Shown one piece after another: positions 24,761 to 63,013 of a stretch of DNA of 64,000 nt. Below the pieces are notes generated by a model that had not been told where the DNA came from, searched no databases, and was given only the letters and a program-made list of their open reading frames with translations. Within the stretch, counting starts at the first letter, position 1, and the number at the start of each line of letters is the position of its first letter. This DNA comes from Candidatus Freyarchaeum deiterrae (GTDB taxonomy: Archaea; Asgardarchaeota; Jordiarchaeia; Jordiarchaeales; Jordiarchaeaceae), in the NCBI GenBank assembly GCA_037305845.1, contig CP147778.1:288001-352000 (forward strand), given 5' to 3'. Position numbers and translations under genes: made by a program.

Positions 24761-25034
24761 TCATGGTAATTCCATTACTATGTCTTCTTGGCTCAGCCTC
24801 TCTTTGCAACTCGGACAGTATCCCTTCACTTTAATCCACTCCAGCAAATGGTCCCTGTGACTCAGGACACCGCAACGGGGACACTTGACGATTGCTTCTC
24901 CCGAAGAGATGCTTTCACTACACACGGAACCCTCGTTAGTAGACTTACCGCAATGTGGACAGAACCGGGCACCACTTGAAGCCTGGATGCCTCAGTAAAC
25001 ACAACACCCCAATTTGGGCCTTTTTCCTACTCAT
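24761..25034 (-). pseudogene. Decayed zinc-ribbon + RING-like zinc finger gene
   Basis: Hand translation: MSRKKAQIG[frameshift in G4]CCVY*GIQASSGARFCPHCGK...SVC...VKCPRCGVLSHRDHLLEWIKVKGYCPSCKERLSQEDIVMELP*; in-frame TGA at 24992-24994; closely matches the C-terminus of 57941..63013. Confidence 0.85.
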
Positions 25035-25149: not shown

Positions 25150-27090
25150 TCAACGGAAAACTTCTTCATCGCCAACCTGAAGCGATTCATTATAGAAATA
25201 GTCTGCAAAAATTGCATACATCGGTTTATTCCACAGTCTAAGATATTTTTTTACTATTTTTCCTTGTAGAATTACTTTATCACCTTTCCTGATATAACGT
25301 GTTGGGACAGAGTGAACTAGGATTTCATCAGGAATTCCTACAATTCCTATATTTTCCTCTAACTTCATTACAAAATAATTTTCAATAAAAGGCGTGTAAA
25401 CGTCTCCACTAGCATTCACTCTTGATTTTCTTGTTATTGAACCTCGAATCGTACCTTCATACAATACTTGTTTTTTTCCCTTTAATTCCTCATCGCCGAT
25501 CTGAAGTGAATCATTATAGAAATGGTCTGCAAAAATTATATACAAGGGCCTACTCAATTGCCTGAAATTCCCTTTAAGTATTTTTCCTTGCAAAATTACT
25601 TTATCTCCTATCCAGAAATAACCAAACTTGGAAGTGAAAACCAGAACTTCATTAGGAATTCCTTCAAAGCCTTCTTCTAATTTCATAGCAAAACAAACTT
25701 TAGAAAAGACATAACGAGCGTAAGGGTTTGGACTGGAAATGAAAGGGCTTGTAATATTCATATTTGAATTTGAGGCTACCAACATTTTACTTCGAATTAG
25801 TCTTGATTCTCCCGTTACTGAACCTCGAATCGTAGCTTCATATAGCACGTGAAGTGCTCCCATTTGCACGCCCAGCGGCGTGGGTTTTATCGGTGGTTCT
25901 TTTCCAGTCTCTTCCGCCTCCTCAACAACTGCGTCTCTCAAAGATATGCTTTCACCACTTAAGGAACTCGGGTCAACAAGCTCACCGCAATGCGGACAAT
26001 ACAGAGCTCCACTTGGAGCCTGAGTGCCGCAGGAAACACACTGCGACCTTTTGGAAGTTAGTGGTTTAGCACCAAGCGATTCATGGTGTATATTATATGC
26101 TGCACCCATCGCTACTGATGCGGCTATCCGTACATCGCCATATCTGTCATGCGATAATTGTTGTAGGAATTCCCACGCCTGTTCCCTGTTTCTGTCCGGA
26201 AGGTGGGGAAATGCAGTACCCAAAGATTCTACTGCGCTGCTCCGTACAATGTTGTCTTCGTCCTGTGATAATTGTTGTAGGACTTCCCACGCCTCTTCCA
26301 TATTATTATTTGGGATGTAGGGAAATGCAGTACCCAAAGATTCTACTGCGCTGCTCCGTACAATGTTGTCTTCGTCCTGTGATAATTGTTGTAGGACTTC
26401 CCACGCCTGTTCCCTGTTTCTGTCCGGAAGGTGGGGAAATACAGTACCCAAAGATTCTGCTGCGCCTCTCCTTACATAGCTGTCTCCGTCCTGCGTTAGT
26501 AGATATAGGACGTCCCACGCCTGCTCCACATTATTATCCGATAGACGGGGAAATGCAGCACCCAAAGATTCTGCCGCGAACATCCGTACACTCCAGTCTT
26601 CGTCATGTGATAATCGTTGTAGGTCTTCCCACGCCTGCTCCACATTATTATCCGATAGACGGGGAAATGCAGCACCCAAAGATTCTACTGCGCTACTCCG
26701 TACTTCGCCGTCTCCGTCCTGCGTTAGTAGGTGTAGGACTTCCCACGCCTGCTCCACATTATTATCCGATAGACGGGGAAATGCAGCACCCAAAGATTCT
26801 GCTATGATTCTCCGTACTTCGATGTCTTCGTCCTGCGTTAGTAGGTGTAGGTCTTCCAAAGCCTGTTTCATGTCCATGTCACTGATGTATGGAAACGCGT
26901 TACGAAGCGATTCTGCTGCAGGTTTTCGTACACCGCGGTTTTCGTCTTGTGTTAGCTGATGTAGATCCTCCCAGGCTTGTGTCTTGTCGGGGAGGACTGC
27001 AAAATTATTGCGGAGTAACTCTACTGCCTCTCTGCGTTCCCCAGATTTGTTGCTTATTGATTTTCTGTGAATCTCTTGTTGATTCACCAA
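25150..27090 (-). CDS. HEAT-repeat protein (~8 x 39 aa) + double zinc ribbon + two tandem OB-fold-like C-terminal repeats
   Basis: Repeat AWEVLQQLSQDEDNIVRSSAVESLGTAFP; CVSCG...YCPHCG; two copies of VLYE.TIRGS.T...GDKVILQGKI...IFAD.FYN.SLQ.GDEE. Confidence 0.85.
   Translation of the reverse strand: MVNQQEIHRKSISNKSGERREAVELLRNNFAVLPDKTQAWEDLHQLTQDENRGVRKPAAESLRNAFPYISDMDMKQALEDLHLLTQDEDIEVRRIIAESLGAAFPRLSDNNVEQAWEVLHLLTQDGDGEVRSSAVESLGAAFPRLSDNNVEQAWEDLQRLSHDEDWSVRMFAAESLGAAFPRLSDNNVEQAWDVLYLLTQDGDSYVRRGAAESLGTVFPHLPDRNREQAWEVLQQLSQDEDNIVRSSAVESLGTAFPYIPNNNMEEAWEVLQQLSQDEDNIVRSSAVESLGTAFPHLPDRNREQAWEFLQQLSHDRYGDVRIAASVAMGAAYNIHHESLGAKPLTSKRSQCVSCGTQAPSGALYCPHCGELVDPSSLSGESISLRDAVVEEAEETGKEPPIKPTPLGVQMGALHVLYEATIRGSVTGESRLIRSKMLVASNSNMNITSPFISSPNPYARYVFSKVCFAMKLEEGFEGIPNEVLVFTSKFGYFWIGDKVILQGKILKGNFRQLSRPLYIIFADHFYNDSLQIGDEELKGKKQVLYEGTIRGSITRKSRVNASGDVYTPFIENYFVMKLEENIGIVGIPDEILVHSVPTRYIRKGDKVILQGKIVKKYLRLWNKPMYAIFADYFYNESLQVGDEEVFR
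26100..27040. repeat. 117-bp coding tandem repeats (HEAT units)
   Basis: Recurrent cccaaagattct...cttcccacgcctg units at about 117-bp spacing, several nearly identical. Confidence 0.85.
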
Positions 27091-52302: not shown

Positions 52303-52758
52303 TCAGATCTTGGTCGAAATGCTTTTACCGAACTCCTCAGCTTTGGCAAGTTCACCTTCAACAAGTGGACCCTTCGAAAACCCCTTGATTTGCGTTGTTA
52401 AACCCGGAGCAACCAGTTTTAGCCCTGGAATTTTTCCTCGAATCTGTTTCTCCATTTTTTGAACAGCTCTGAGGTCATTTCTCGCGTGTGTGTCGAAAAC
52501 AGCGCCTGCTTTTCCTTTCAAATCAAGCTTTTCTAACTTTTTCAGGAAATTCTTGATGTCTCCCACCGGTCCTCCCCCGTTATTTGGGGAACCAATAATT
52601 AACGCATCATATTCTAAAGCTTCTTCGGGTTTAGTTTCCTTAACGTCCTTGACTGCAGCCTCTGCCTTTTTCGTTGTATTAATACCCTTGGCTATTGCCT
52701 CTGCTACTGCTTTGGTGTTCCCGTACCTGCTCCAATAAACTACCAATGCTTTTGGCAA
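52303..52758 (-). CDS. Flavodoxin, copy 1
   Basis: YWSRYGNTKAVAE, IIGSP, AVFDT. Confidence 0.9.
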   Translation of the reverse strand: MPKALVVYWSRYGNTKAVAEAIAKGINTTKKAEAAVKDVKETKPEEALEYDALIIGSPNNGGGPVGDIKNFLKKLEKLDLKGKAGAVFDTHARNDLRAVQKMEKQIRGKIPGLKLVAPGLTTQIKGFSKGPLVEGELAKAEEFGKSISTKI

Positions 52759-53032
52759 AATATCAAACGCTCCACCAATAATTTTCTGATACTATTTTAT
52801 TTAACCTATTTTGTAATTATCCGCTCCTTAAACCAGAAGATTAAATGTATTTTATTGTTTAATGGGTGCATGAAATATTAATTTTTATTCGTTGACAGTG
52901 ACCAGCCAAACAATCGAAATTATAAAAAAAATAGGTTATAGGGAGTTACTACTTAGATTGTAATGAACTCCAATGAAACTCTTTTGGGAAATAGCTCATC
53001 ACGATTTATTCGCTTAACAGTTTTATTTATTT

Positions 53033-53497
53033 TCAGATCTTGGCCGAAATGCTTTTACCGAACTCTTCAGCTTTGGCAAGTTCTCCTTCAACAAGTGGAC
53101 CCTTCATAATTCCCTTGGCCTCTCCTCCAAAACCCGGAGCCACCAGTTTTAAACCCGGAATTTTTCCCCGAATCTGTCTCTCCATTTTTTGAATAGCTCT
53201 AAGATTACTTTGTCCCGGACCACTGTGTGTGTCGAAAACAGCGCCTTTTTTTCCTTTCAGATTAAGCTTTTCTAATTTTTTCAGGAAATTCTTGATGTCT
53301 CCAACCGGTCCTCCACCGTGGTTTGCAGAACCAATAATTAGCGCATCGTAGTCTAAAACCTCTTCGGGTTTAGTAATCTTAACGTCCTTGACTACAGCCT
53401 CTGCCTTTTTCGTTGCATTAATACCCTTGGCTATTGCTTCTGCTACTGCTTTGGTGTTTCCCGTCTTGCTCCAATAAACTACCAATGCTTTTGGCAA
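53033..53497 (-). CDS. Flavodoxin, copy 2
   Basis: YWSKTGNT; near-identical to copy 1. Confidence 0.9.
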   Translation of the reverse strand: MPKALVVYWSKTGNTKAVAEAIAKGINATKKAEAVVKDVKITKPEEVLDYDALIIGSANHGGGPVGDIKNFLKKLEKLNLKGKKGAVFDTHSGPGQSNLRAIQKMERQIRGKIPGLKLVAPGFGGEAKGIMKGPLVEGELAKAEEFGKSISAKI

Positions 53498-53765
53498 AAT
53501 ATCAAACGCTCCTTCAATAACTTTCTGCTACTATTACACAATTTTGTGATTACCCTCTCCCTAAATTAGGAGATTAAACTTATTTTATTATTTTATAGGT
53601 ACATGAAATATTAATATTTATTCTTTGGCAGTGACCAGCTAAACAATCAAAAATATCAAAAAAATATGTTATAGGGAGTTACTGCTTGAATTGTAGTGAA
53701 CTCCAATGAAACTCTTTTGGGAAATAGCCCATCACGATTTATTCGCTTAACCGTGTTATTTATTT

Positions 53766-54221
53766 TCAGATCTTGGTCGAAATGCTTTTTCCGAACTCCT
53801 CAGCTTTCGCAAGTTCACTCTCAGCAATTGGACCCTGCATTCCCTCAACCTGCAATGCTAAGCTTGGGGCAACTAGTTTTAGGCCTGAAATTTTTTCCTG
53901 TATCTGTTTCTCCATTTTTTGCCCGACTTTAAGGTCGTTTTTATTATGTGTATCAAAAACGGCGCATGCTTTTCCTTTCAAATTAAGCTTTTCTAATTTT
54001 TTCAGGAAATTCTTGATGTCTCCAACCGGTCCTCCCATGTGATTTGCCGAACCAATAATTAACGCATCGTAGTCTAAAACCTCTTCTGGTTTAGTATCTT
54101 TAACATTCTTTACTACTACCTCTACCTTTTTTGCTGCCTTTATTATCCCTTTGGCTATTGAATCTGCCACTTTTTTGGTGTTTCCGTACCTACTCCAATA
54201 GACAATTAAAACTTTTGACAA
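53766..54221 (-). CDS. Flavodoxin, copy 3
   Basis: YWSRYGNT; TTG at 54221 aligns with the starts of copies 1 and 2. Confidence 0.9.
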   Translation of the reverse strand: MSKVLIVYWSRYGNTKKVADSIAKGIIKAAKKVEVVVKNVKDTKPEEVLDYDALIIGSANHMGGPVGDIKNFLKKLEKLNLKGKACAVFDTHNKNDLKVGQKMEKQIQEKISGLKLVAPSLALQVEGMQGPIAESELAKAEEFGKSISTKI

Positions 54222-54541
54222 AATCACATCACTCCCCAAATAGACTTTTAGTATCTTCTTATTCAATCGTACAAATATCTTTTACTCTAATCTAAGCGCA
54301 AGATTAAATATCTTTAGGAAACAAGGAATAATGGAAGTATGGAAGAACTTACCTAAGATTTTCTCACTCTCAAGAATAATTCACTCTCCGTGTTTTAGGA
54401 GGGGTCTCTCAAGGATCTTCCACTTTGCGTGAGCCTAGAGCCAACCTAGAGAAGGCTACGCGTCTCGTATAACTTTCGGCTTTAGGCCATAGAAAAGGTA
54501 ATAGGGGAATTAAAGAAGAAATAAGAAATGAGGGAGCGAAA

Positions 54542-55642
54542 ATGTGTGCAGCACAACAGCCAAGGGATTACACTAAAGAACCAGACATTGTAAAGAAAAT
54601 AGTGGACGGTTTACATCCAGAAAGAATGTATCTGAAAGTGAAAGAAATAATTGAAGAGACGCCGAGCACGAAAACCTTTAGGATGGTGCCAACCAAGGGA
54701 AAGTTACCACCCTTTAGAGCCGGCCAGTACGTTAACCTATTTGTAAATATAGAAGGAGTACTCACCAGTAGACCCTACAGCATATCCTCATCGCCCACCA
54801 AGACGGAATACATCGACCTCACAGTACGTAGAAAGCAGAACGGCTTCGTATCCAACTATCTCATGGACAAGGTAAGAGTGGGTGATGAGTTTGAAACCAC
54901 AGGACCCATGGGGCAGTTCTATTACGAGCCTCTTACTGATGGAAAAAATTTGGTATTCCTCGCTGGTGGAAGTGGGGTAACTCCCTTCATGAGCATCATC
55001 AGAGAAGTGGTGGATCGAAAACTAGATTTTAACATCTGGTTGATTTACGGAAGCCGTGTTCCCAGCGACGTAATCTTCCTCAAGGAACTGGAAAAAATTG
55101 CTAAAAAGTATAAAAACACTCATTTCACGGTTGTGATTTCAGAGCCTCCAGATGGTTACACGGGAGTATGCGGCTTCTTGGAGAGGGGAATCATCTTGAG
55201 TCAAATAGGCCAAGCTGAAGGCAAGACATTCTACATGTGTGGACCGCGGGTGATGTACACCTTCTGCGAAAGTGAATTAGCCAGTCTAAAACTGCCCAGA
55301 AGAAGATTCAAGCGTGAATCTTACGGTCCCCCAGACGATGTAACCATGGAGCCAGACTGGCCTTCTGGTCTCTCAGGTGACAAACAGTTCACTGTGGAAG
55401 TAGTTGGTAAAAAGACCTTTGAGGCACGCGCAGGTGAACCCCTAATGAACTCCTTGGAAAGGGAGGGTGTAGTTATTCCAGCAGTTTGCCGCTCTGGAGT
55501 TTGCACAACTTGTCGCACCAAGCTGGTTTCAGGAAAGGTTTTCATGCCAAGCACGGTAACACTGTTAGAGGCTGACCGCAAATTCGGCTACATTCATCCG
55601 TGCATGGCCTACCCAATCTCGGATATAAAAATTCGAATCTAG
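54542..55642 (+). CDS. FAD/NAD(P)-binding oxidoreductase with C-terminal 2Fe-2S domain (Hcr/PaaE-like)
   Basis: RPYSISS, AGGSGVTP, MCGP, CRSGVCTTC...C. Confidence 0.92.
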   Translation: MCAAQQPRDYTKEPDIVKKIVDGLHPERMYLKVKEIIEETPSTKTFRMVPTKGKLPPFRAGQYVNLFVNIEGVLTSRPYSISSSPTKTEYIDLTVRRKQNGFVSNYLMDKVRVGDEFETTGPMGQFYYEPLTDGKNLVFLAGGSGVTPFMSIIREVVDRKLDFNIWLIYGSRVPSDVIFLKELEKIAKKYKNTHFTVVISEPPDGYTGVCGFLERGIILSQIGQAEGKTFYMCGPRVMYTFCESELASLKLPRRRFKRESYGPPDDVTMEPDWPSGLSGDKQFTVEVVGKKTFEARAGEPLMNSLEREGVVIPAVCRSGVCTTCRTKLVSGKVFMPSTVTLLEADRKFGYIHPCMAYPISDIKIRI

Positions 55643-55825
55643 TTACAGTTGCTGAACTACTTTCTAATTTTTCTTTTGAGGATTGGACTTTAGCCGCGGT
55701 TTTCCTTTTTCTCTAAATTTTTCGGTTTCCACATTGAATCATTTTATAATCCGTCCTGCATATTGAAGCATAAGAAATAAAGGTATTTGATTACTATAAA
55801 TCCACGAAATGGTGGTGAGACTGTT

Positions 55826-57115
55826 TTGGAAGGAGTATTCTTTTCTGATGTTACTGGAATTGATCCCGAAAATCATATAATTTGCACTTATTATGTAGAA
55901 ACTTCTGGCAGTCTTGAGAGTGCTGGAGAAGCCATAGCTGCAGAAGAATCCATAGGAACATGGACTGACATCAAAACTATAAAAGTTGATATTCAGCAGA
56001 GACTCGCAGCTAAGGCTTTCAAATTCGAGGAAAAAGAAAAGGGAACAGGATTAATTAAGATAGCCTTTCCCTTGGAACTTTTCGATTTAGAAAAAGGTGG
56101 CATCCCAAACATAATGAGCATGATTACAGGAAACCTATTCGGCCTTTCAGCATTAAAAAATGTGAGACTGCTTGACGCTGAATTCCCCAAGTCTGTGCTG
56201 ACCTATTTTCCCGGACCGAAATTCGGATTGGAAGGCGTAAGAAAAATCGTAGGTACAAAGGAGAGTAGACGACCTCACCTCGGAACAATAATCAAACCCA
56301 AGGTTGGTCTAAACCCATCAGAAACCGCTGAAGTGGCTTACGAGGCAGCTGTCGGCGGAGTGGACTTCATCAAGGATGATGAAACGCTTGTCTCACAGAG
56401 CTTCTGTCCCTTGGAAGAGAGGCTTTCCAAAGTTATGGAGAAAATTGACCTAGTGAAGGAGGAAACAGGACGCACAGTTTTCTATGCACTGAACATAACC
56501 GGGAACGTGAATACGCTCTATGAGTTTGCGGATTACGCAGTGGAAAACGGAGCAAACATGATTATGCTGGACATCCTGCTCTCCGGCTTAGCCGCATTAC
56601 AGAGACTCGCAGAGGACCCCTCGATAACGGTTCCCCTTCACTGCCACAGAACATTCCACGCAGCCTTCACCAAAAACCCTGTCCACGGAGTCCACATGAA
56701 GGTGATAGGCATGTTAACCAGACTCGCCGGAGGAGACCAGCTTCACAGCGGAACCGCTGCGGGAAAAATGGGGATAGAGGAAGAGACACCTGAAACGTTA
56801 GAAACCAACGCCGCTCTGCTTAAAGAGTGGGGGAACATGAAAACAGTTATGCCTGTAGCTTCGGGTGGAATTCACCCCGCACTGGTTCCCAAAAACCTCG
56901 AAGTACTGGGCACAGACCTCGTCATCAACGCAGGTGGCGGCATCCACGGTCACCCGGACGGAACTAGAGCAGGAGCTGCTGCAATGAGGCAGGCGATAGA
57001 CGCGGTTATGAAAAAAATCCCTCTAGAAAAATACGCAAAGACACACAAAGAACTTCAAAGAGCACTTGAAAAATGGGGATACAGGTACGTAGAAAAACCC
57101 GAATCCATCAAGTAG
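55826..57115 (+). CDS. rbcL: Ribulose-bisphosphate carboxylase large subunit, form III-like
   Basis: EESIGTW, GNLFG, IKPKVGL, DFIKDDE, HCHR, HSGTAAGKM, SGGIHP, GGGIHGHP; SD GGTGGTGA before TTG at 55826. Confidence 0.9.
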   Translation: MEGVFFSDVTGIDPENHIICTYYVETSGSLESAGEAIAAEESIGTWTDIKTIKVDIQQRLAAKAFKFEEKEKGTGLIKIAFPLELFDLEKGGIPNIMSMITGNLFGLSALKNVRLLDAEFPKSVLTYFPGPKFGLEGVRKIVGTKESRRPHLGTIIKPKVGLNPSETAEVAYEAAVGGVDFIKDDETLVSQSFCPLEERLSKVMEKIDLVKEETGRTVFYALNITGNVNTLYEFADYAVENGANMIMLDILLSGLAALQRLAEDPSITVPLHCHRTFHAAFTKNPVHGVHMKVIGMLTRLAGGDQLHSGTAAGKMGIEEETPETLETNAALLKEWGNMKTVMPVASGGIHPALVPKNLEVLGTDLVINAGGGIHGHPDGTRAGAAAMRQAIDAVMKKIPLEKYAKTHKELQRALEKWGYRYVEKPESIK

Positions 57116-57182: not shown

Positions 57183-57811
57183 CTATTTTTCTTTTTGTTC
57201 GAGGGCTCTGTCGATTTCCTCTTTAAACAGTGAATAGGGCTCCGCTCCAAATATTACACTATGGTTTTTAATTATGAATGTGGGAACTCCTGTTATACAT
57301 TTGTTTCTTCCTTCACGATAATTTTGAATTATTATGTCCTTCTTGGAACCACCGTTCAGACATTTTTCGAACAATTCCACATCCATTCCTACATCGGTGG
57401 CTATTTCCTTTAAAACTTCCACACTGCCAATGTCTCTATGTTCTTTGAATAAAGCGTCAAAAACCTTTTCGTGGAATTCCCAGAACTTACCCTGATCCCT
57501 TGCGCACTCACTAGCCTCGAAGGCTTTCACGGAGTCGGGAAGTGTGAAGGGAAGTTTGGGGGGGTGATCTTTATGTCCAGATTTCTCTCCTCAGCTAGGT
57601 TTTTAATACGTTCGAAAACTCTGAGAATAAAATCATTTGACATTATGGGTTTAATGCTTCCTGGGTATAGGGGATAGTGTTTCCAAGTAAAACTAATTTT
57701 GTCACCGTACTCTTCCTTTAGTTCCTTTAGGGTGAGGTATCCTATAAAGCAGAAGGGGCATATGTAATCCGAAAAAACGATGATTTCAAGAGGAGAATTT
57801 TTTTCAACCAA
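57183..57811 (-). pseudogene. DsbA/FrnE-family thioredoxin-fold oxidoreductase split by a -1 frameshift (ORFs 57527..57811 and 57183..57530)
   Basis: FSDYICPFC in the 5' ORF, ITGVPTF...GAEP in the 3' ORF; one extra C in the C7 run (57558-57564) joins them as ITPPKLPFTLPDSVKAFEA. Confidence 0.85.
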
Positions 57812-57940: not shown

Positions 57941-60900
57941 CTAAACAATGTCTAGCTGGCTCAATTTCTTCTCGCAACTCGGGCAGGTTCCCTTTATCTT
58001 GATCCATTCTAATAGGTGGTCTTTGTGGCTCAGGGCTCCGCAGCATGGACACTTGACCAACTGGTCTCCTGAGACAATGTTTATCTGGCACACTGGGCAC
58101 CTGAGTCTGGCTCCTCCGCAGTTGGGGCAATACTTTTCGTCCCCCTGAATCTCGGTTCCGCAGAACATGCAGCACCGCTGCCCAATGTCAGGTGTAGGTG
58201 AGGTGATTACTCCCAGCTTTTTCTCAACGGTAGCAAGTTTGGCGCTGTATTTCTGGTATATTTCCCGGTACTCGTCGGGGGTGAGTTTTCCGGCTTCGAA
58301 CCGGGTGTTTATCTCCGCCATCAGGTCCTTGAGAGCCGCCCTTCTAGATTCGAGGTCTTGAGCCAGACGCTTGGCTTTGGCTGGCTTTACACGCTTTGCA
58401 GCGGTTACTGTCTGTGCTTCACTCTGAGGCGTTGTCCTCCTGATTTTGAGAATTATCTTCTGTTCTGAGGCTTTTTCTTCTCTTGTGGGAGAGATTTGGG
58501 TCCCTGTATAGCTGGCTGGTCTCTGAGGAGCAGTCTCTGGATATCTGGTTGGGGCTTCCGTCTCGGTAATCTGTTCTTCTTCCCTTCTTCCTCTCCGCAA
58601 TCCCAATGTGGCAACCGTGACCCCTGCGACCGCGACCAAGCCTAGAGTCAGGTAAATCAGAGGATTTAGGCCGCTGGGTGTATTCAAGAAAAGTATTAGT
58701 AATGGGATATACGGATACCACACTGGTGTTCCGAGTATGGCAAAGTAGGTTAAATGGTTAGTATACCCAGTTATTGTGTTGTTCTGGATGTCTACGGTGC
58801 TTGGGAGCTGGATCCAGTTTCCTGAGGTTTCGTTCCAGTACCATATTGCTAGGGAGTTTTCTTTCAGGTTGTTTCCTGTGACTTCTTGGTCAGTGTAGTG
58901 TATTGTTATATTGATTCCCTGAATTGCGGTTGTGTTATCTACCTCGATAGAAACAAATCTTCCCAAAAAGTTCAAGCCGAAGGGCGTATTTCCCTTCAGG
59001 TTATCTATGATTTTTATAATGCTCAAGTTAACTGGATTTGTTAGATTTATAGTGAGTTCTACCCCCATTTGTACCGAGACATTCACAAGTTTATTTATAC
59101 CAGCACCAATACTGGTAGTGATTGAAGAGTCTACTTTTTCCACAACAAAAGTTTCCTTATGAGATGAACTCATGTAGACTGTTCTTTTGTTGTCCGTAAT
59201 ATTTAGCCCAAAGAAACTAGCAGTCACTCTGGCCGCATTATATATCGGGGTCCCACCAACATAGGTTTGATATGGTACAATAAACCAGTCGGTTAATCCA
59301 CTTTGGTTTGTTGTGGAGTTGCTGCCGCCAAATTCAGGAGAGGCGTAAACTACGTTTCCATCAACCTCTACCTTAACGTCCGCACCCTGTACAGGATTCT
59401 CGTTTTTGTCCAGAACCTCAATACAGAGATAATTTGCTACAACACTTCCCGTGAAATCAATATATAAGTTACTACCATCCAGATTGAAACCGTATCTGTT
59501 GTTCACAAGAGTGTTATCTGTAAGAGTATTGTTGTTTGATTTCCATTCTAGGAAGAAACCGGCGGCGCCGTTGTTGTTTGCAGTGTTACACGAAAGAGTG
59601 TTGTTTGAGCTTTGGGACAGGAAGAAGCCGTCTCCGTTGTTGTTTGCGGTATTGTTTGAGAGAGTATTGTTGGAGCTGTCGTACATGTAGAAGCCATCGC
59701 CGTTGTTGATGGCGAAATTGCTCATAAGTTTGCTATACGTGCTGCGAAATATATCGAATCCATAGTTGTTGTTGCTTGCTGTGTTACCCGTAAGAGTGTT
59801 GTTGTAGGTGTTGTATATGTTGAAGCCGTCCCAGACGTTGTTGGTTGCGGTGTTGCCTGAGATATTGTTGTTATTGGAACCGAACCAGAGATATAAGCCG
59901 TACATGTTGTTGTATGAAATCGTATTATTAATGAGTTGGTTGTTGGAACTGGAGTCGAGGAAGAATCCGTCGTTACTGTTGTTTGTGACGTTGTTGTTTC
60001 TTATTATATTGTAGTAAGCATTCCAGAGCAATATTCCATAGTAGTTGTTTGAGAAGGTGTTGTTTTCGATTACCGCGTTGTCGGTGTTTATGCAGGGACC
60101 GCAATCCTCTTTGTTTGGCCAGTTGCTGTATCCGCAGTAGTGTATTTCGCTGTTGTTCATCTGGAATGTTGCTCCGGGTTGCACCCAGAATACGAAGTTA
60201 TGCGCATTATCTTTATTGTAGGCTGTGATTACTGTGGCGTCATTTGTGGTGAGAGGGTTACCGTCACTATCATTGATGTACAATGCTCCCCCGCTCTTAA
60301 CTTCTATGCCGTGTTCGCCGTTGGTGGAGCAGTTGACAAATAAGGTGACGCTGGTTAGTGTCAGGCTTCCCCCGCCAGCTATTGTAAGGTTTCCATTTAG
60401 TATAATTTGAGTGTTTGAAATGTTCTGTGAATCACTTATTGTGGTATCTCCCCATATAGTGGGGGTAGCGGTGAAGTTTTCAATATGAGAAGATGATATG
60501 TCAACAATTCTAGGGTTGTTGAGAAAGCTCATTATTTTGAATTTCACGGTTACAACCGTTGTGTTCCCCACCCAGGCTCCACTGGTAAAGGTTTGATAGG
60601 GAACAATGATCAAGTCGGTTAATCCGTTTTGGTCTGTTGAGGAATTAATTCCACCAAATCCGGGGGAGGCGTAAAGCGGGTTCCCGTCAACCTCTACCTT
60701 AACATCCGCACCCTGCACAGCACCACCGTCGTAGCCCAGTACCTTAACGCTGAGATAATTTGACACAATACTGCCTGTGAGATCATTGCCTGAACTGCCA
60801 GCTTCAAGATAGAAACCGTATGCGTTGTTTACGGCAGCGTTTCCCGTAATAGTATTGTTCAAGCAGGAGAATAGGTAGAAGCCGTAGGTGCTGTTTGTGG

Positions 60901-63013
60901 CGGTGTTACTCGAAAGAGTATTGTTATTGGAGCTGGAGGATAGGTAGAAGCCGTAGTAGTTGTTGTTTGTGACGGTGTTACTTGTAAGATTGTTGTTTGA
61001 GCTGGAGGATAGACCGAAGCCTAAATAATAGTTGAGGTTTGCGGTGTTACTCGAAAGAGTATTATTCGAGCTGGAGGATAGGAAGAAACCGTCCCAGCCG
61101 TTGTGGTATGCGGTGTTACTCGAAAGAGTATTGTTGTTCGAGTAGTGGTTAAGGTCGAAGCCGTTGCCTCTCCAGCCGAAAGCCCCGTTGTCGTTTGCGG
61201 TATTACCCAAGAGAATATTGTTGTTCGAGTAGTGGTCTAGGTCGAAGCCCCAATAGTTGTATTTTGCGGTATTACTTGTAAGAGTGTTATTTGAGCTGGA
61301 GTTTAGGTAGAAGCCGTATTGGGTGTTGTTGTTTGCGGTGTTACCCAAGAGAGTATTATTCGAGCTGGAGGATAGGCTGAAGCCGTCGTTAATATTGTTG
61401 TTTACGGTGTTACCCAAGAGAGTATTGTTGTATGCAGAGTATAATGTGATTCCAACATAGTTGTTTGTGAATGTGTTGTTCTCTATGACTGCGTTGTTGG
61501 TGCTTATCCAGAGACCATAATAGTCATAGTTACTGGTCGTGTAATTGTATCCGCAGTATTGCAGTTCGCTGTTGTTCATCTGGAATGTTGCTCCGGGTTG
61601 CACCCGAAATAGGAAGTTATGCGTGTTGTCTGGATTATAGGCAGTGATGTTTGTGGCGTCGTTTATAGTATTAGGGTTTCCGTCGCTGTCATTTATGTAT
61701 AGTGCTCCTCCACTCTGAACCTCTATGCCGTGTTCACCGTTAGTGGTGCAGTTGACCATTAAGGTATCATTGGTTAGTGTCAGGCTTCCCCCACTAGCGA
61801 TTGTTAGGTTTCCGTTCAGAATTATGGCTTTGCTGTAAATTATTTGAGTATCGGTGATAATGGTATCGTTCCAGATTTCTTCTTCGCTTCCCCAGGCTCC
61901 CTGGATTGGTTCGGGGTCACATAAATTTCTTACAAAGCACCAATCAACTGTTACACTTGTATTAGTACCTCTTGCCCCAAAATTTATACCCAAATTATCT
62001 TTAGGTGCTTGGCCAGGCATCCAAGCTGTTAAAATGTCGTTTTCGAAGAATTGGACGTCATTTTTCCAAATTATCTTTAAAATATGGTAAGAGCTTAAAT
62101 CTGTTCTTCGGACTACCATGCCAGCACTGTCGTCTGTCCATACTTGATAATAATCTAGCGCAAACTCGGCAATATCAAACCCGAAACCCGAGTAACCACC
62201 ACCTGTTGCGCTTCTTTCATCCGCAGCTATCTGCCACGCATTTTGTCCACCGGCTTGTCCGTATGCTTTAGCTCTGAAATAAAAAGCTCTCGGCTTGCTG
62301 AATTGGACTCTAGCGCCGATGGATTCAAAATCGAGACCTCCATTGCCCAAAATTGTTAACTCGGTTCCAGACTCGGAATACGCACCGCCTGTTTTCCCTA
62401 TATTCCATTTGTTCGTGTCCAAAATATTGTCATCAAAGTGATCAAAGAATGGAAAAGTGTTAGTCCCATTACTAGTTGTTGTGGCATCGTTTTTCCCATA
62501 ATAAACGTAAATAGTAGTATTGTTAGGTGCAACGGGGATAGAATCTACTTGGACCCAGAAGGTCGCGTTGTCACCGTCGTACTCGCTCTCCATCCAGTAG
62601 TTCAGTTGGCTGGTTCCATCCGAGTTTGTGAACCTTATGTCGCCGAAGTCTGTTCTGCAGTTAGCCTTACAATAAATGTTCTCGGCGTTGTCGCTGCCGC
62701 TGCTGTAGTGTACCACTATCATCGTCTGGTAATTGGTCTGGGCACCCGCAGTACTTCCACTTAATGTGTGGCTTTTGCAGTATTCCCATCCCGACAGCCA
62801 AAAAGCTTTTGCATTAATATTATTGTTATTTTGGGGGTTGTTTAAAAATAGGGTTTGAAAGTAATTTGTATTTGTAGTTTGGTAAGAGAGGAATACGGGT
62901 ATGCATATTGAAATGGTGAAAAGTGAAATCGCCATTAATGCGATGAATGCACGTTTATGATTATTTAAACGGTTTTTTAGGCTTGGTATTTTCACCCGCC
63001 TCATTTCTCCCAT
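57941..63013 (-). CDS. 1690-aa cell-surface protein: signal/TM, DUF2341-like domain, two NosD/CASH beta-helix modules, Ig-like domain, TM, cytoplasmic helical hairpin, zinc ribbon and RING-like finger
   Basis: DFGDIRFT...LNYWME...YVYYG; many GFxLxxSSNNTLxxNT repeats; hydrophobic TM followed by RRGRR; CMFCG..YCPNCG; CPVC-x12-CPCC-x4-H-x2-H-LLEW-x6-CPSC. Confidence 0.88.
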   Translation of the reverse strand: MGEMRRVKIPSLKNRLNNHKRAFIALMAISLFTISICIPVFLSYQTTNTNYFQTLFLNNPQNNNNINAKAFWLSGWEYCKSHTLSGSTAGAQTNYQTMIVVHYSSGSDNAENIYCKANCRTDFGDIRFTNSDGTSQLNYWMESEYDGDNATFWVQVDSIPVAPNNTTIYVYYGKNDATTTSNGTNTFPFFDHFDDNILDTNKWNIGKTGGAYSESGTELTILGNGGLDFESIGARVQFSKPRAFYFRAKAYGQAGGQNAWQIAADERSATGGGYSGFGFDIAEFALDYYQVWTDDSAGMVVRRTDLSSYHILKIIWKNDVQFFENDILTAWMPGQAPKDNLGINFGARGTNTSVTVDWCFVRNLCDPEPIQGAWGSEEEIWNDTIITDTQIIYSKAIILNGNLTIASGGSLTLTNDTLMVNCTTNGEHGIEVQSGGALYINDSDGNPNTINDATNITAYNPDNTHNFLFRVQPGATFQMNNSELQYCGYNYTTSNYDYYGLWISTNNAVIENNTFTNNYVGITLYSAYNNTLLGNTVNNNINDGFSLSSSSNNTLLGNTANNNTQYGFYLNSSSNNTLTSNTAKYNYWGFDLDHYSNNNILLGNTANDNGAFGWRGNGFDLNHYSNNNTLSSNTAYHNGWDGFFLSSSSNNTLSSNTANLNYYLGFGLSSSSNNNLTSNTVTNNNYYGFYLSSSSNNNTLSSNTATNSTYGFYLFSCLNNTITGNAAVNNAYGFYLEAGSSGNDLTGSIVSNYLSVKVLGYDGGAVQGADVKVEVDGNPLYASPGFGGINSSTDQNGLTDLIIVPYQTFTSGAWVGNTTVVTVKFKIMSFLNNPRIVDISSSHIENFTATPTIWGDTTISDSQNISNTQIILNGNLTIAGGGSLTLTSVTLFVNCSTNGEHGIEVKSGGALYINDSDGNPLTTNDATVITAYNKDNAHNFVFWVQPGATFQMNNSEIHYCGYSNWPNKEDCGPCINTDNAVIENNTFSNNYYGILLWNAYYNIIRNNNVTNNSNDGFFLDSSSNNQLINNTISYNNMYGLYLWFGSNNNNISGNTATNNVWDGFNIYNTYNNTLTGNTASNNNYGFDIFRSTYSKLMSNFAINNGDGFYMYDSSNNTLSNNTANNNGDGFFLSQSSNNTLSCNTANNNGAAGFFLEWKSNNNTLTDNTLVNNRYGFNLDGSNLYIDFTGSVVANYLCIEVLDKNENPVQGADVKVEVDGNVVYASPEFGGSNSTTNQSGLTDWFIVPYQTYVGGTPIYNAARVTASFFGLNITDNKRTVYMSSSHKETFVVEKVDSSITTSIGAGINKLVNVSVQMGVELTINLTNPVNLSIIKIIDNLKGNTPFGLNFLGRFVSIEVDNTTAIQGINITIHYTDQEVTGNNLKENSLAIWYWNETSGNWIQLPSTVDIQNNTITGYTNHLTYFAILGTPVWYPYIPLLILFLNTPSGLNPLIYLTLGLVAVAGVTVATLGLRRGRREEEQITETEAPTRYPETAPQRPASYTGTQISPTREEKASEQKIILKIRRTTPQSEAQTVTAAKRVKPAKAKRLAQDLESRRAALKDLMAEINTRFEAGKLTPDEYREIYQKYSAKLATVEKKLGVITSPTPDIGQRCCMFCGTEIQGDEKYCPNCGGARLRCPVCQINIVSGDQLVKCPCCGALSHKDHLLEWIKIKGTCPSCEKKLSQLDIV

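Follow-up and report, generated by a model that had tools for sequence, protein, structure and literature searches.

A single-pass surface protein of Candidatus Freyarchaeum deiterrae that combines a GAIN-like domain with a candidate membrane-anchored RING ubiquitin ligase

Introduction

In eukaryotes, ubiquitin-dependent sorting of surface receptors requires membrane E3 ubiquitin ligases. To our knowledge, only soluble, operon-encoded small RINGs have been tested so far in archaea. The gene considered here lies at positions 57941–63013 (reverse strand) of a 64,000-nucleotide stretch of the genome of Candidatus Freyarchaeum deiterrae (contig CP147778.1, positions 288,001 to 352,000; hereafter the window), and encodes a large surface protein with one membrane anchor close to its C terminus, followed by a zinc ribbon and a RING finger. 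We read it as probably being a single-pass surface glycoprotein with a self-cleaving GAIN-like domain outside the cell and a membrane-anchored RING E3 inside. The archaeal protein with which its finger is best compared is srfp, the small RING protein of the Caldiarchaeum subterraneum operon, which was shown to be an E3 that requires residues I30, W58, and R69 (PMC5654768). The two fingers belong to the same RING subtype, and equivalents of I30, W58, and CP are conserved in the family of tails described below. They differ in setting: srfp is a soluble protein of ~80 amino acids (aa) encoded beside ubiquitin (Ub), E2, and E1, whereas the RING reported here is preceded by a ribbon, is fused to the cytoplasmic end of a 1470-aa membrane protein, and is encoded away from the operon.

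A type-I layout with a cytoplasmic RING-H2-like finger is shared with the eukaryotic PA-TM-RING ligases (RNF13, RNF43/ZNRF3) and with the endoplasmic reticulum ligases Hrd1 and gp78, and the profile of the tail family also matches the RINGs of RNF13, ZNRF3, Hrd1, and gp78. Compared with PA-TM-RING proteins, however, the archaeal ectodomain is unrelated (it has no PA domain, and Pfam recognizes only DUF2341 and beta-helix families), a zinc ribbon is added, and the zinc ligands are C4-H2-C2; no evidence of common descent was found for the architecture as a whole. The likeness to RNF43/ZNRF3 that was drawn in an initial annotation of this DNA holds for the architecture only.

On the outer side of the membrane, the closest parallels are the adhesion G protein-coupled receptors (GPCRs), with their GAIN domain, and the microbial GAIN ("MAIN") proteins, such as Bacillus subtilis YfkN. 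MAIN domains were shown to cleave themselves at H-F-S, which releases surface proteins (10.64898/2026.05.12.724683). According to the same 2026 preprint, MAIN proteins typically have a wall or S-layer anchor, with no cytoplasmic domain reported and no signalling tied to the anchored fragment, and neither Asgard archaea nor RING appears in its text. The protein studied here shares with both groups the succession of adhesion domains and a sandwich of the GAIN-B fold beside the anchor, as well as an H-x-S/T triad in the turn before the last strand; its HLT.FAILG sequence closely resembles the GPS motif. It differs from them in having neither a helical GAIN-A subdomain nor the GPS cysteines, in being held by one transmembrane (TM) helix rather than by seven (adhesion GPCRs) or by sortase or S-layer (MAIN), and in placing a RING on the inside, an output that has been reported for neither group.

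The order of ribbon and then RING is also found at the C termini of GATOR2 (MIOS, WDR24, WDR59), SEA, and IFT-A (IFT144, IFT122) subunits. There the module ends soluble beta-propeller/alpha-solenoid proteins, whereas here it ends membrane or small proteins. Prok-RING_1 (PF14446), a prokaryotic RING family linked to Ub-system genes, aligns to the protein with the first half of its model only. In our reading, the protein newly joins three parts that are each known by themselves: an ectodomain of the adhesin type that includes a microbial GAIN domain, a TM anchor, and a RING E3 module. A full-text literature search, in which few subscription journals were covered, returned no paper on the combination of a GAIN-like domain, a TM helix, and a RING, none that joins Asgard archaea with GAIN, and none on membrane-anchored RING proteins in Asgard archaea.

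Results

Gene and domain layout

ORF analysis shows the gene to be a single uninterrupted open reading frame (ORF) of 1690 codons plus stop; the public protein record has 1687 aa because it starts 3 codons later. The genome is closed and comprises 3.58 Mb (3,576,204 bases) with 40.7% G+C. The closest public relatives of the RING tail, and of the E2 discussed below, are labelled Freyarchaeota, Jordarchaeum, or Jordarchaeales, and family proteins are named "DUF2341," "beta-helix repeat," "Ig-like," or "hypothetical" in public records. The parts of the gene, in window coordinates, are as follows.

57941..63013 (-): whole gene, 1690 aa plus stop
62882..63013 (-): aa 1–44, basic N-region and ~20-aa hydrophobic signal or signal-anchor (hydropathy 2.52 at aa 24–42)
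62399..62650 (-): aa 122–205, DUF2341 domain (PF10102, 91.7 bits against a cut-off of 23.4)
60467..61876 (-): aa 380–849, first parallel beta-helix (NosD-type) and immunoglobulin (Ig)-like module
59141..60457 (-): aa 853–1291, second beta-helix and Ig-like module (56% identity to the first, E 4e-134)
58718..59128 (-): aa 1296–1432, membrane-proximal GAIN-B/ZU5-like (microbial GAIN, "MAIN"-like) beta-sandwich
58748..58756 (-): H1420-L1421-T1422, candidate autoproteolysis triad (conservation, loop position in the model, weak GPS match)
58598..58660 (-): aa 1452–1472, transmembrane helix (hydropathy)
58583..58597 (-): aa 1473–1477, RRGRR stop-transfer cluster, cytoplasmic face
58181..58582 (-): aa 1478–1611, cytoplasmic linker (EEQ..EAPTRY motif after the TM helix, and a predicted helical stretch)
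58112..58180 (-): aa 1612–1634, C4 zinc ribbon (C1615, C1618, C1629, C1632; Zn_ribbon_15, 30.1 bits against a cut-off of 28.9)
57962..58105 (-): aa 1637–1684, RING-type cross-brace finger (C4-H2-C2) with V1641, W1670, and P1678

The main elements of this layout had been read from the sequence in the initial annotation and were borne out. The DUF2341-like domain and the duplicated beta-helix modules are recovered by Pfam (E 4e-26 for DUF2341; 3e-51 for Beta_helix/NosD repeats) and by the identity between the two modules, which form a tandem duplication with an Ig-like piece ending each copy. The C-proximal TM segment with its RRGRR cluster corresponds to the hydropathy helix and to R1473–R1477 immediately behind it, and the ligand pattern of the ribbon and finger occurs with exactly the spacing given. 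No Pfam family was found for aa 200–400, aa 760–900, or the cytoplasmic linker.

A hydropathy scan places an N-terminal anchor at about aa 24–42, and the segment at aa 1452–1472 is the only other full-length helix. The region between the two is acidic, rich in Asn, Thr, and Ser, and holds 53 N-x-S/T sequons. After the second segment come five basic residues and a tail of 213 aa that is basic, contains 0 sequons, and has 12 cysteines, every one of them in a zinc motif. Because positive charge marks the inner side of a membrane helix and zinc fingers require a reducing compartment, the tail is cytoplasmic. An archaeosortase-like sorting signal ("PSGLNP-TM-RRGRR") was considered and dropped, since the conserved 213-aa tail comes after RRGRR; the sole match, CoaP_CTERM at 10 bits, is noise.

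Directly after the TM helix (aa 1478–1498, window 58520–58582) stands an acidic EEQ(V/I)..EAPTRY motif that recurs in the large paralogues, is doubled in the 1036-aa one, and could be a sorting or docking signal. The predicted helical stretch of the linker is also present in a paralogue of 657 aa; a SHOCT-like reading of it found no support in Pfam.

The tail finger is a RING

The ribbon ligands are arranged as C1615-x2-C1618-x10-C1629-x2-C1632 and those of the finger as C1639-x2-C1642-x12-C1655-x2-C1658-x4-H1663-x2-H1666-LLE-W1670-x6-C1677-P-x-C1680. All eight finger ligands and P1678 are invariant in 58 of 58 aligned tails of different proteins, so the motif is not a chance pattern; W1670 and the four ribbon cysteines are kept in at least 90% of them. 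When the family profile was compared with the PDB, RING-H2 E3s were matched, with RNF126 (7e-8) followed by RNF24, Arkadia, RNF4, EL5, Hrd1, gp78, RNF38, RNF13, and ZNRF3. An AlphaFold (AF2) model of the tail has a predicted local distance difference test (pLDDT) score of 84–92 across the RING, with a helix at fragment residues 69–79, straight after H1666. The model superposes on the Rad18 RING (1.2 Å over 54 columns) and on EL5 (1.7 Å over 49), and also on RNF126, RNF24, TRAF6, and U-box structures. At positions that contact the E2 in known E3s, 36 family members have Val at V1641 in 33 cases and are without exception at W1670 and P1678 (36/36 each).

The alternative that the initial annotation had left for a fold comparison was a PHD finger. 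PHD fingers are C4-H-C3, with Cys at ligand 6, and carry a Trp two residues before ligand 7. The 36 members all have His as ligand 6, and two residues ahead of C1677 they all have Gly (G1675) in place of Trp; the PHD reading is rejected on these two features. No PHD was seen among the best 50 fold matches of the tail model, which proves nothing alone, and an NCBIfam scan added nothing further for the tail. The tail finger is a RING, not a PHD. The wider possibility is that the finger acts as a binuclear reader of PHD-like or other non-RING type, or else as a zinc module that binds nucleic acid and belongs to a membrane-tethered regulator freed by proteolysis. This reading draws on the C-x2-C-x12-C-x2-C-x4-H-x2-(H) spacing, which is formally PHD/RINGv-like, on the frequency of zinc ribbons among archaeal nucleic-acid-binding proteins, and on weak Pfam matches to double zinc ribbons. 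We consider it very improbable: besides the His at ligand 6 and the Gly ahead of ligand 7, profile and fold searches alike gave RING and U-box proteins, and no DNA-binding family was matched in the Pfam and NCBIfam scans.

Kinship with the RING of a ubiquitin operon

The genome encodes the components with which such a RING would work. Of its three UQ_con genes, the first belongs to an operon of an 86-aa RING, Ub, E2, and E1 (C1:1985076–1987569), the second to a cluster that also encodes JAB, Ub, E1, and a further three RING proteins, and the third is a UEV-Vps23 fusion adjoining Vps28 and an EAP30 (Vps22/36-like) protein. With two Snf7 genes in addition, there are two Ub-E2-E1 clusters and components of ESCRT-I, -II, and -III (endosomal sorting complex required for transport), genes for which the initial annotation had proposed a search.

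The 86-aa RING that heads the first operon shares its signature with the tail RING, with 54% identity between the two (E 2e-18); those of the second cluster resemble the tail RING only distantly. The spacing of I30, W58, and R69 in the Caldiarchaeum protein (28 and 11 residues) corresponds to that of V1641, W1670, and position 1681 (29 and 11 residues). At the level of sequence, the operon RING and the tail RING are shown to be paralogues, and we place the tail in the clade of archaeal operon-E3 RINGs, here fused to a membrane protein. As a copy of an operon RING E3, it is read as a membrane-anchored RING E3.

Two features of the operon itself were noted. Between its Ub and E2 genes is an AT-rich gap of 530 bp with no ORF (C1:1986535–1987063). 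The E2 has a conserved N-terminal helix whose codons are in frame upstream of the first ATG, and no ATG, GTG, or TTG precedes them as a start; E2 relatives of 150–156 aa include this helix. The sequence points to a start codon of an unusual kind or to one that was called wrongly.

A GAIN-like domain next to the membrane

The final 137 aa of the ectodomain, which the initial annotation did not pick out as a unit, form a GAIN-B/ZU5-like domain that is common to 11 family proteins. Its model (pLDDT 90.9) has as top structural matches the GAIN domains of CD97 (9.9e-6), BAI3, and BAI2, and then ZU5 and the FIIND of NLRP1 and CARD8. A beta-sandwich of the GAIN-B type adjoins the membrane anchor, and this strengthens the reading of the protein as a receptor. 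H1420, L1421, F1424, and G1428 are invariant in the 11 proteins, position 1422 is Thr or Ser, and H1420-L1421-T1422 falls in the loop between the last two strands of the model (E118–123 and E129–133). Pfam GPS (PF01825) aligns at the triad weakly and below its threshold (13 bits, E 0.16, cut-off 22.5), and the 11-protein alignment has no Cys at the GPS positions. The sequence profile of the domain found no solved relative, so its likeness to GAIN is structural only. By analogy with the MAIN domains, the domain most likely cuts itself between L1421 and T1422.

Four proteins of the genome, the one studied here and three paralogues, combine the GAIN-like domain with one TM helix and a ribbon and RING tail. 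A secreted protein of 946 aa (C1:3308761–3311601, -) has a diverged copy of the domain in which the triad His is replaced (..SGFSYF..), and no TM helix or RING follows it. In all large paralogues, a conserved hydrophobic, Pro-rich stretch of 13 residues (aa 1431–1443, window 58685–58723) stands between the GAIN-like domain and the TM helix, as does a PSGLNP motif. The stretch is too short for a membrane crossing; it may rest against the membrane surface in the manner of a tethered stalk peptide.

The same architecture could belong to a releasable surface adhesin or enzyme carrier of the MAIN type, whose tail would matter only for the biogenesis or turnover of the protein itself, for instance as a handle for the ubiquitin system, and would not signal. 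A signal, adhesion or beta-helix domains, a GAIN-like domain, and an anchor are indeed what has been described for MAIN proteins, which have no known signalling output, and beta-helix modules are typical of proteins that act on or bind polysaccharides. Such a carrier is nevertheless quite unlikely in our view: MAIN proteins are usually held by wall or S-layer and have no reported cytoplasmic domain, whereas here a conserved 213-aa tail with 12 zinc ligands has been kept in four GAIN-like proteins of the genome and in metagenome-assembled genomes (MAGs) labelled Freyarchaeota and Lokiarchaeia.

Copies and distribution of the ribbon and RING module

The strict motif is present in eight ORFs of the genome, and a few more carry degenerate versions. 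Five members are large single-pass surface proteins (1036, 1690, 1324, 1245, and 657 aa), whose ectodomains are of the DUF2341, beta-helix, or Ig type; a further two are small and multi-pass, and another three are soluble, the operon RING among them. Two decayed pieces of the module were also found, one of them within the window:

24761..25034 (-): decayed ribbon and RING copy (TGA at a ribbon Cys codon, first RING Cys lost, no upstream host protein)

This piece lies just downstream of the gene for a 646-aa HEAT-repeat protein that has an internal zinc ribbon of its own (25150–27090). Elsewhere (C1:3411000–3421000), three members on unrelated membrane proteins (205, 657, and 254 aa) are encoded within 7 kb, interspersed with genes for a metallophosphoesterase, a LigB-type dioxygenase, and a methyltransferase; the 205-aa copy is without the Trp, and no ubiquitin-system genes were found around this cluster (C1:3.411–3.421 Mb).

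Counting further holders of the module, as had been proposed, showed the family to be Asgard-wide. Searched against 1.84 billion representative proteins, the module profile matched 1404 at E<=1e-3 and 193 at E<=1e-10. The module is nearly always at the extreme C terminus, in host proteins of 54–1864 aa, many of which have TM helices. Named holders are Freyarchaeota, Jordarchaeum, and Hermod-, Heimdall-, Hel-, and Odinarchaeota; the module also turned up in a few differently labelled bins, which may be mis-binned. Proteins with both the GAIN-like domain and the tail also occur in the MAGs labelled Freyarchaeota and Lokiarchaeia. Among 201 sampled genomes of the phylum, the module is present in 141 and UQ_con in 144, and presence or absence agrees in 25 of 25 families. 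One family of 49 genomes is without both, and in another the single genome with the module is also the single one with an E2, at 12% contamination. Lineages with one or two copies probably have only the operon RING, and other lineages hold 5–28. In other Asgard MAGs, the RING-only form stands beside Ub-E2-E1 in 5 of 40 loci, and the ribbon and RING forms are found elsewhere.

Neighbouring genes and expression

Directly downstream of the gene is a DsbA-like thioredoxin gene (window 57183–57811, -), which consists of two overlapping ORFs (94 and 115 aa) with a frame change near 57527–57545 and the CPFC active site in the first piece; decay to a pseudogene, an error of assembly, or recoding could each account for this. 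On the same, lower-coordinate side are three tandem flavodoxin genes (52303–54266, -), a ferredoxin-NAD(P) reductase-like FAD/NAD/2Fe-2S protein (54542–55642, +), and a RuBisCO large-subunit homologue (55787–57115, +). Scans of the window for tRNA genes and Rfam families were empty. Four metatranscriptome runs yielded one contig of 229 nucleotides (61365–61593) from one wetland RNA library, which could equally be DNA carry-over.

Predicted E2 binding and the case for a structural module

Binding to the operon E2 was modelled with the RING (aa 1634–1690), each partner being supplied as an alignment, in three runs; the mark that was used is one that 58 of 80 solved complexes attain, as do 2 of 110 mismatched pairs. 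The complex model scored 0.64 against 0.00 for the best of three controls, which is scored as support, with agreement between runs of at least 0% of contacts and a partner pLDDT of at least 77. On the RING side, the modelled contact is made by the usual E2 face (V1641–I1644, K1664–H1666, L1668–W1670, K1672–K1674).

A number of results weigh against a membrane-anchored ligase. One of the three docking runs scored 0.00, and on the E2 side the model uses the beta1/beta2 "backside" and the C terminus (residues 25–28, 39–44, 108, and 149–152) and avoids the canonical surface of helix 1, loop 4, and loop 7 (Y64, P96, and S97 by alignment with UbcH7). Because RING-E2 complexes have already been solved, the passing score may also partly reflect mere likeness. 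Given the non-canonical face and the zero-scoring run, the docking therefore weakly favours the predicted RING-E2 binding and lends nothing to its geometry. The linchpin residue is Arg or Lys in known RING E3s, and position 1681 is Lys or Arg in 27 of 36 family members; the protein studied here has E1681, the only Glu of the 36 and unlike R69 of srfp, with K1682 and K1683 coming after it. The ligand spacing, in which x2 separates ligands 3 and 4 (C-x2-C) and x4 precedes the first His, is a variant that departs from the textbook RING-H2. Pfam scores of the finger are at or just under their cut-offs: zf-RING_2 (PF13639, cut-off 27.3) gives 29.6 bits in the genome scan, 27.2 with the isolated tail, and 22.1 with the whole protein, and Prok-RING_1 gives 26.0 bits on the tail (cut-off 29.1; profile positions 6–33 of 54 aligned), one paralogue scoring 29.1 bits. 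The agreement between module and UQ_con across families is in part inherent in the search, since the operon RING itself is picked up by the profile too, and related genomes are not independent samples of it. The neighbouring genes (RuBisCO form III, the DsbA-like gene, and Sir2) give no functional link, and there are no ubiquitin-system genes among them. Finally, the tandem of ribbon and RING as a whole is best matched, by profile (2.7e-7 over positions 14–101, 88 positions) and by fold (Foldseek, 7e-5 to 1e-3), by the C termini of GATOR2, SEA, and IFT-A subunits, whose RINGs mainly hold a complex together.

The last of these points gives the main rival its substance, namely that the tail is a structural zinc module that, by pairing with further copies of itself or with different RING proteins, clusters or scaffolds membrane proteins beneath the membrane, as in GATOR2, SEA, and IFT-A. 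MIOS, WDR24, WDR59, the SEA complex, IFT144/WDR19, and IFT122 are its best whole-module matches, the roughly ten copies on unrelated membrane and soluble proteins would fit a shared docking module, and the missing basic linchpin and non-canonical modelled E2 contact speak for it too. Yet the tail RING falls within the clade of the Ub-operon E3 and forms no separate lineage; the Val, Trp, and Cys-Pro that touch the E2 in known E3s are near invariant, which a structural role would not obviously preserve; and the similar eukaryotic domains are carried by beta-propeller/solenoid proteins, of which there are none here. On balance a purely structural tail seems unlikely to us, and a membrane-anchored RING E3 remains the preferred reading.

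Discussion

The initial annotation had proposed a receptor-type E3 that couples binding outside the cell to ubiquitin-like modification or ESCRT sorting. The fold of the finger, the Ub and ESCRT genes, and the topology agree with that proposal, whereas the receptor coupling is something that we still infer.

If the protein is a membrane-anchored RING E3 with a self-cleaving ectodomain, the mechanism might run as follows. The DUF2341 domain and the two beta-helix/Ig modules would be adhesion or glycan-binding parts, and the GAIN-like domain would cut itself within H1420-L1421-T1422, before T1422, with the two pieces held together non-covalently. Inside the cell, a flexible basic linker would lead to the zinc ribbon and the RING, the latter being a putative duplicate of the small RING E3 that this organism encodes in its RING-Ub-E2-E1 operon. 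The RING would bring charged E2 to the membrane's inner face and ubiquitylate the protein itself or neighbouring membrane proteins, and the products may feed the ESCRT or proteasome systems, both of which are encoded in the genome. The regulator would likely be engagement or shedding of the ectodomain.

A more far-reaching idea, which we put forward tentatively and consider unlikely, is that such proteins are adhesion-receptor-like mechanosensors of Asgard archaea with ubiquitylation as their output. Pull on the glycan-binding ectodomain would part the self-cleaved GAIN-like domain, and the remaining stalk, TM helix, and RING would turn into an E3 that is active or clustered and tags itself or adjacent proteins for ESCRT sorting; the same tandem of ribbon and RING would perhaps be the ancestor of the C termini of GATOR2, IFT-A, and HOPS-type protocoatomer proteins. 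If the idea is true, receptor down-regulation that depends on ubiquitin would have a prokaryotic antecedent in these mechanosensors.

With its surface domains and its inner RING, the protein looks like a prokaryotic precursor of eukaryotic receptors that are linked to the ubiquitin system. The family places the operon RING subtype on the cytoplasmic end of large surface proteins, and the four proteins that join a GAIN-like domain to a RING offer a candidate signalling output for the anchored GAIN fragment. The likeness of the ribbon and RING module to GATOR2 and IFT-A C termini, which underlies the main rival, is also a concrete lead to where those domains came from. Should the family prove active, recombinant proteins would make it testable when membrane-bound ubiquitin ligases arose and whether outside-in signalling by shedding predates eukaryotes.

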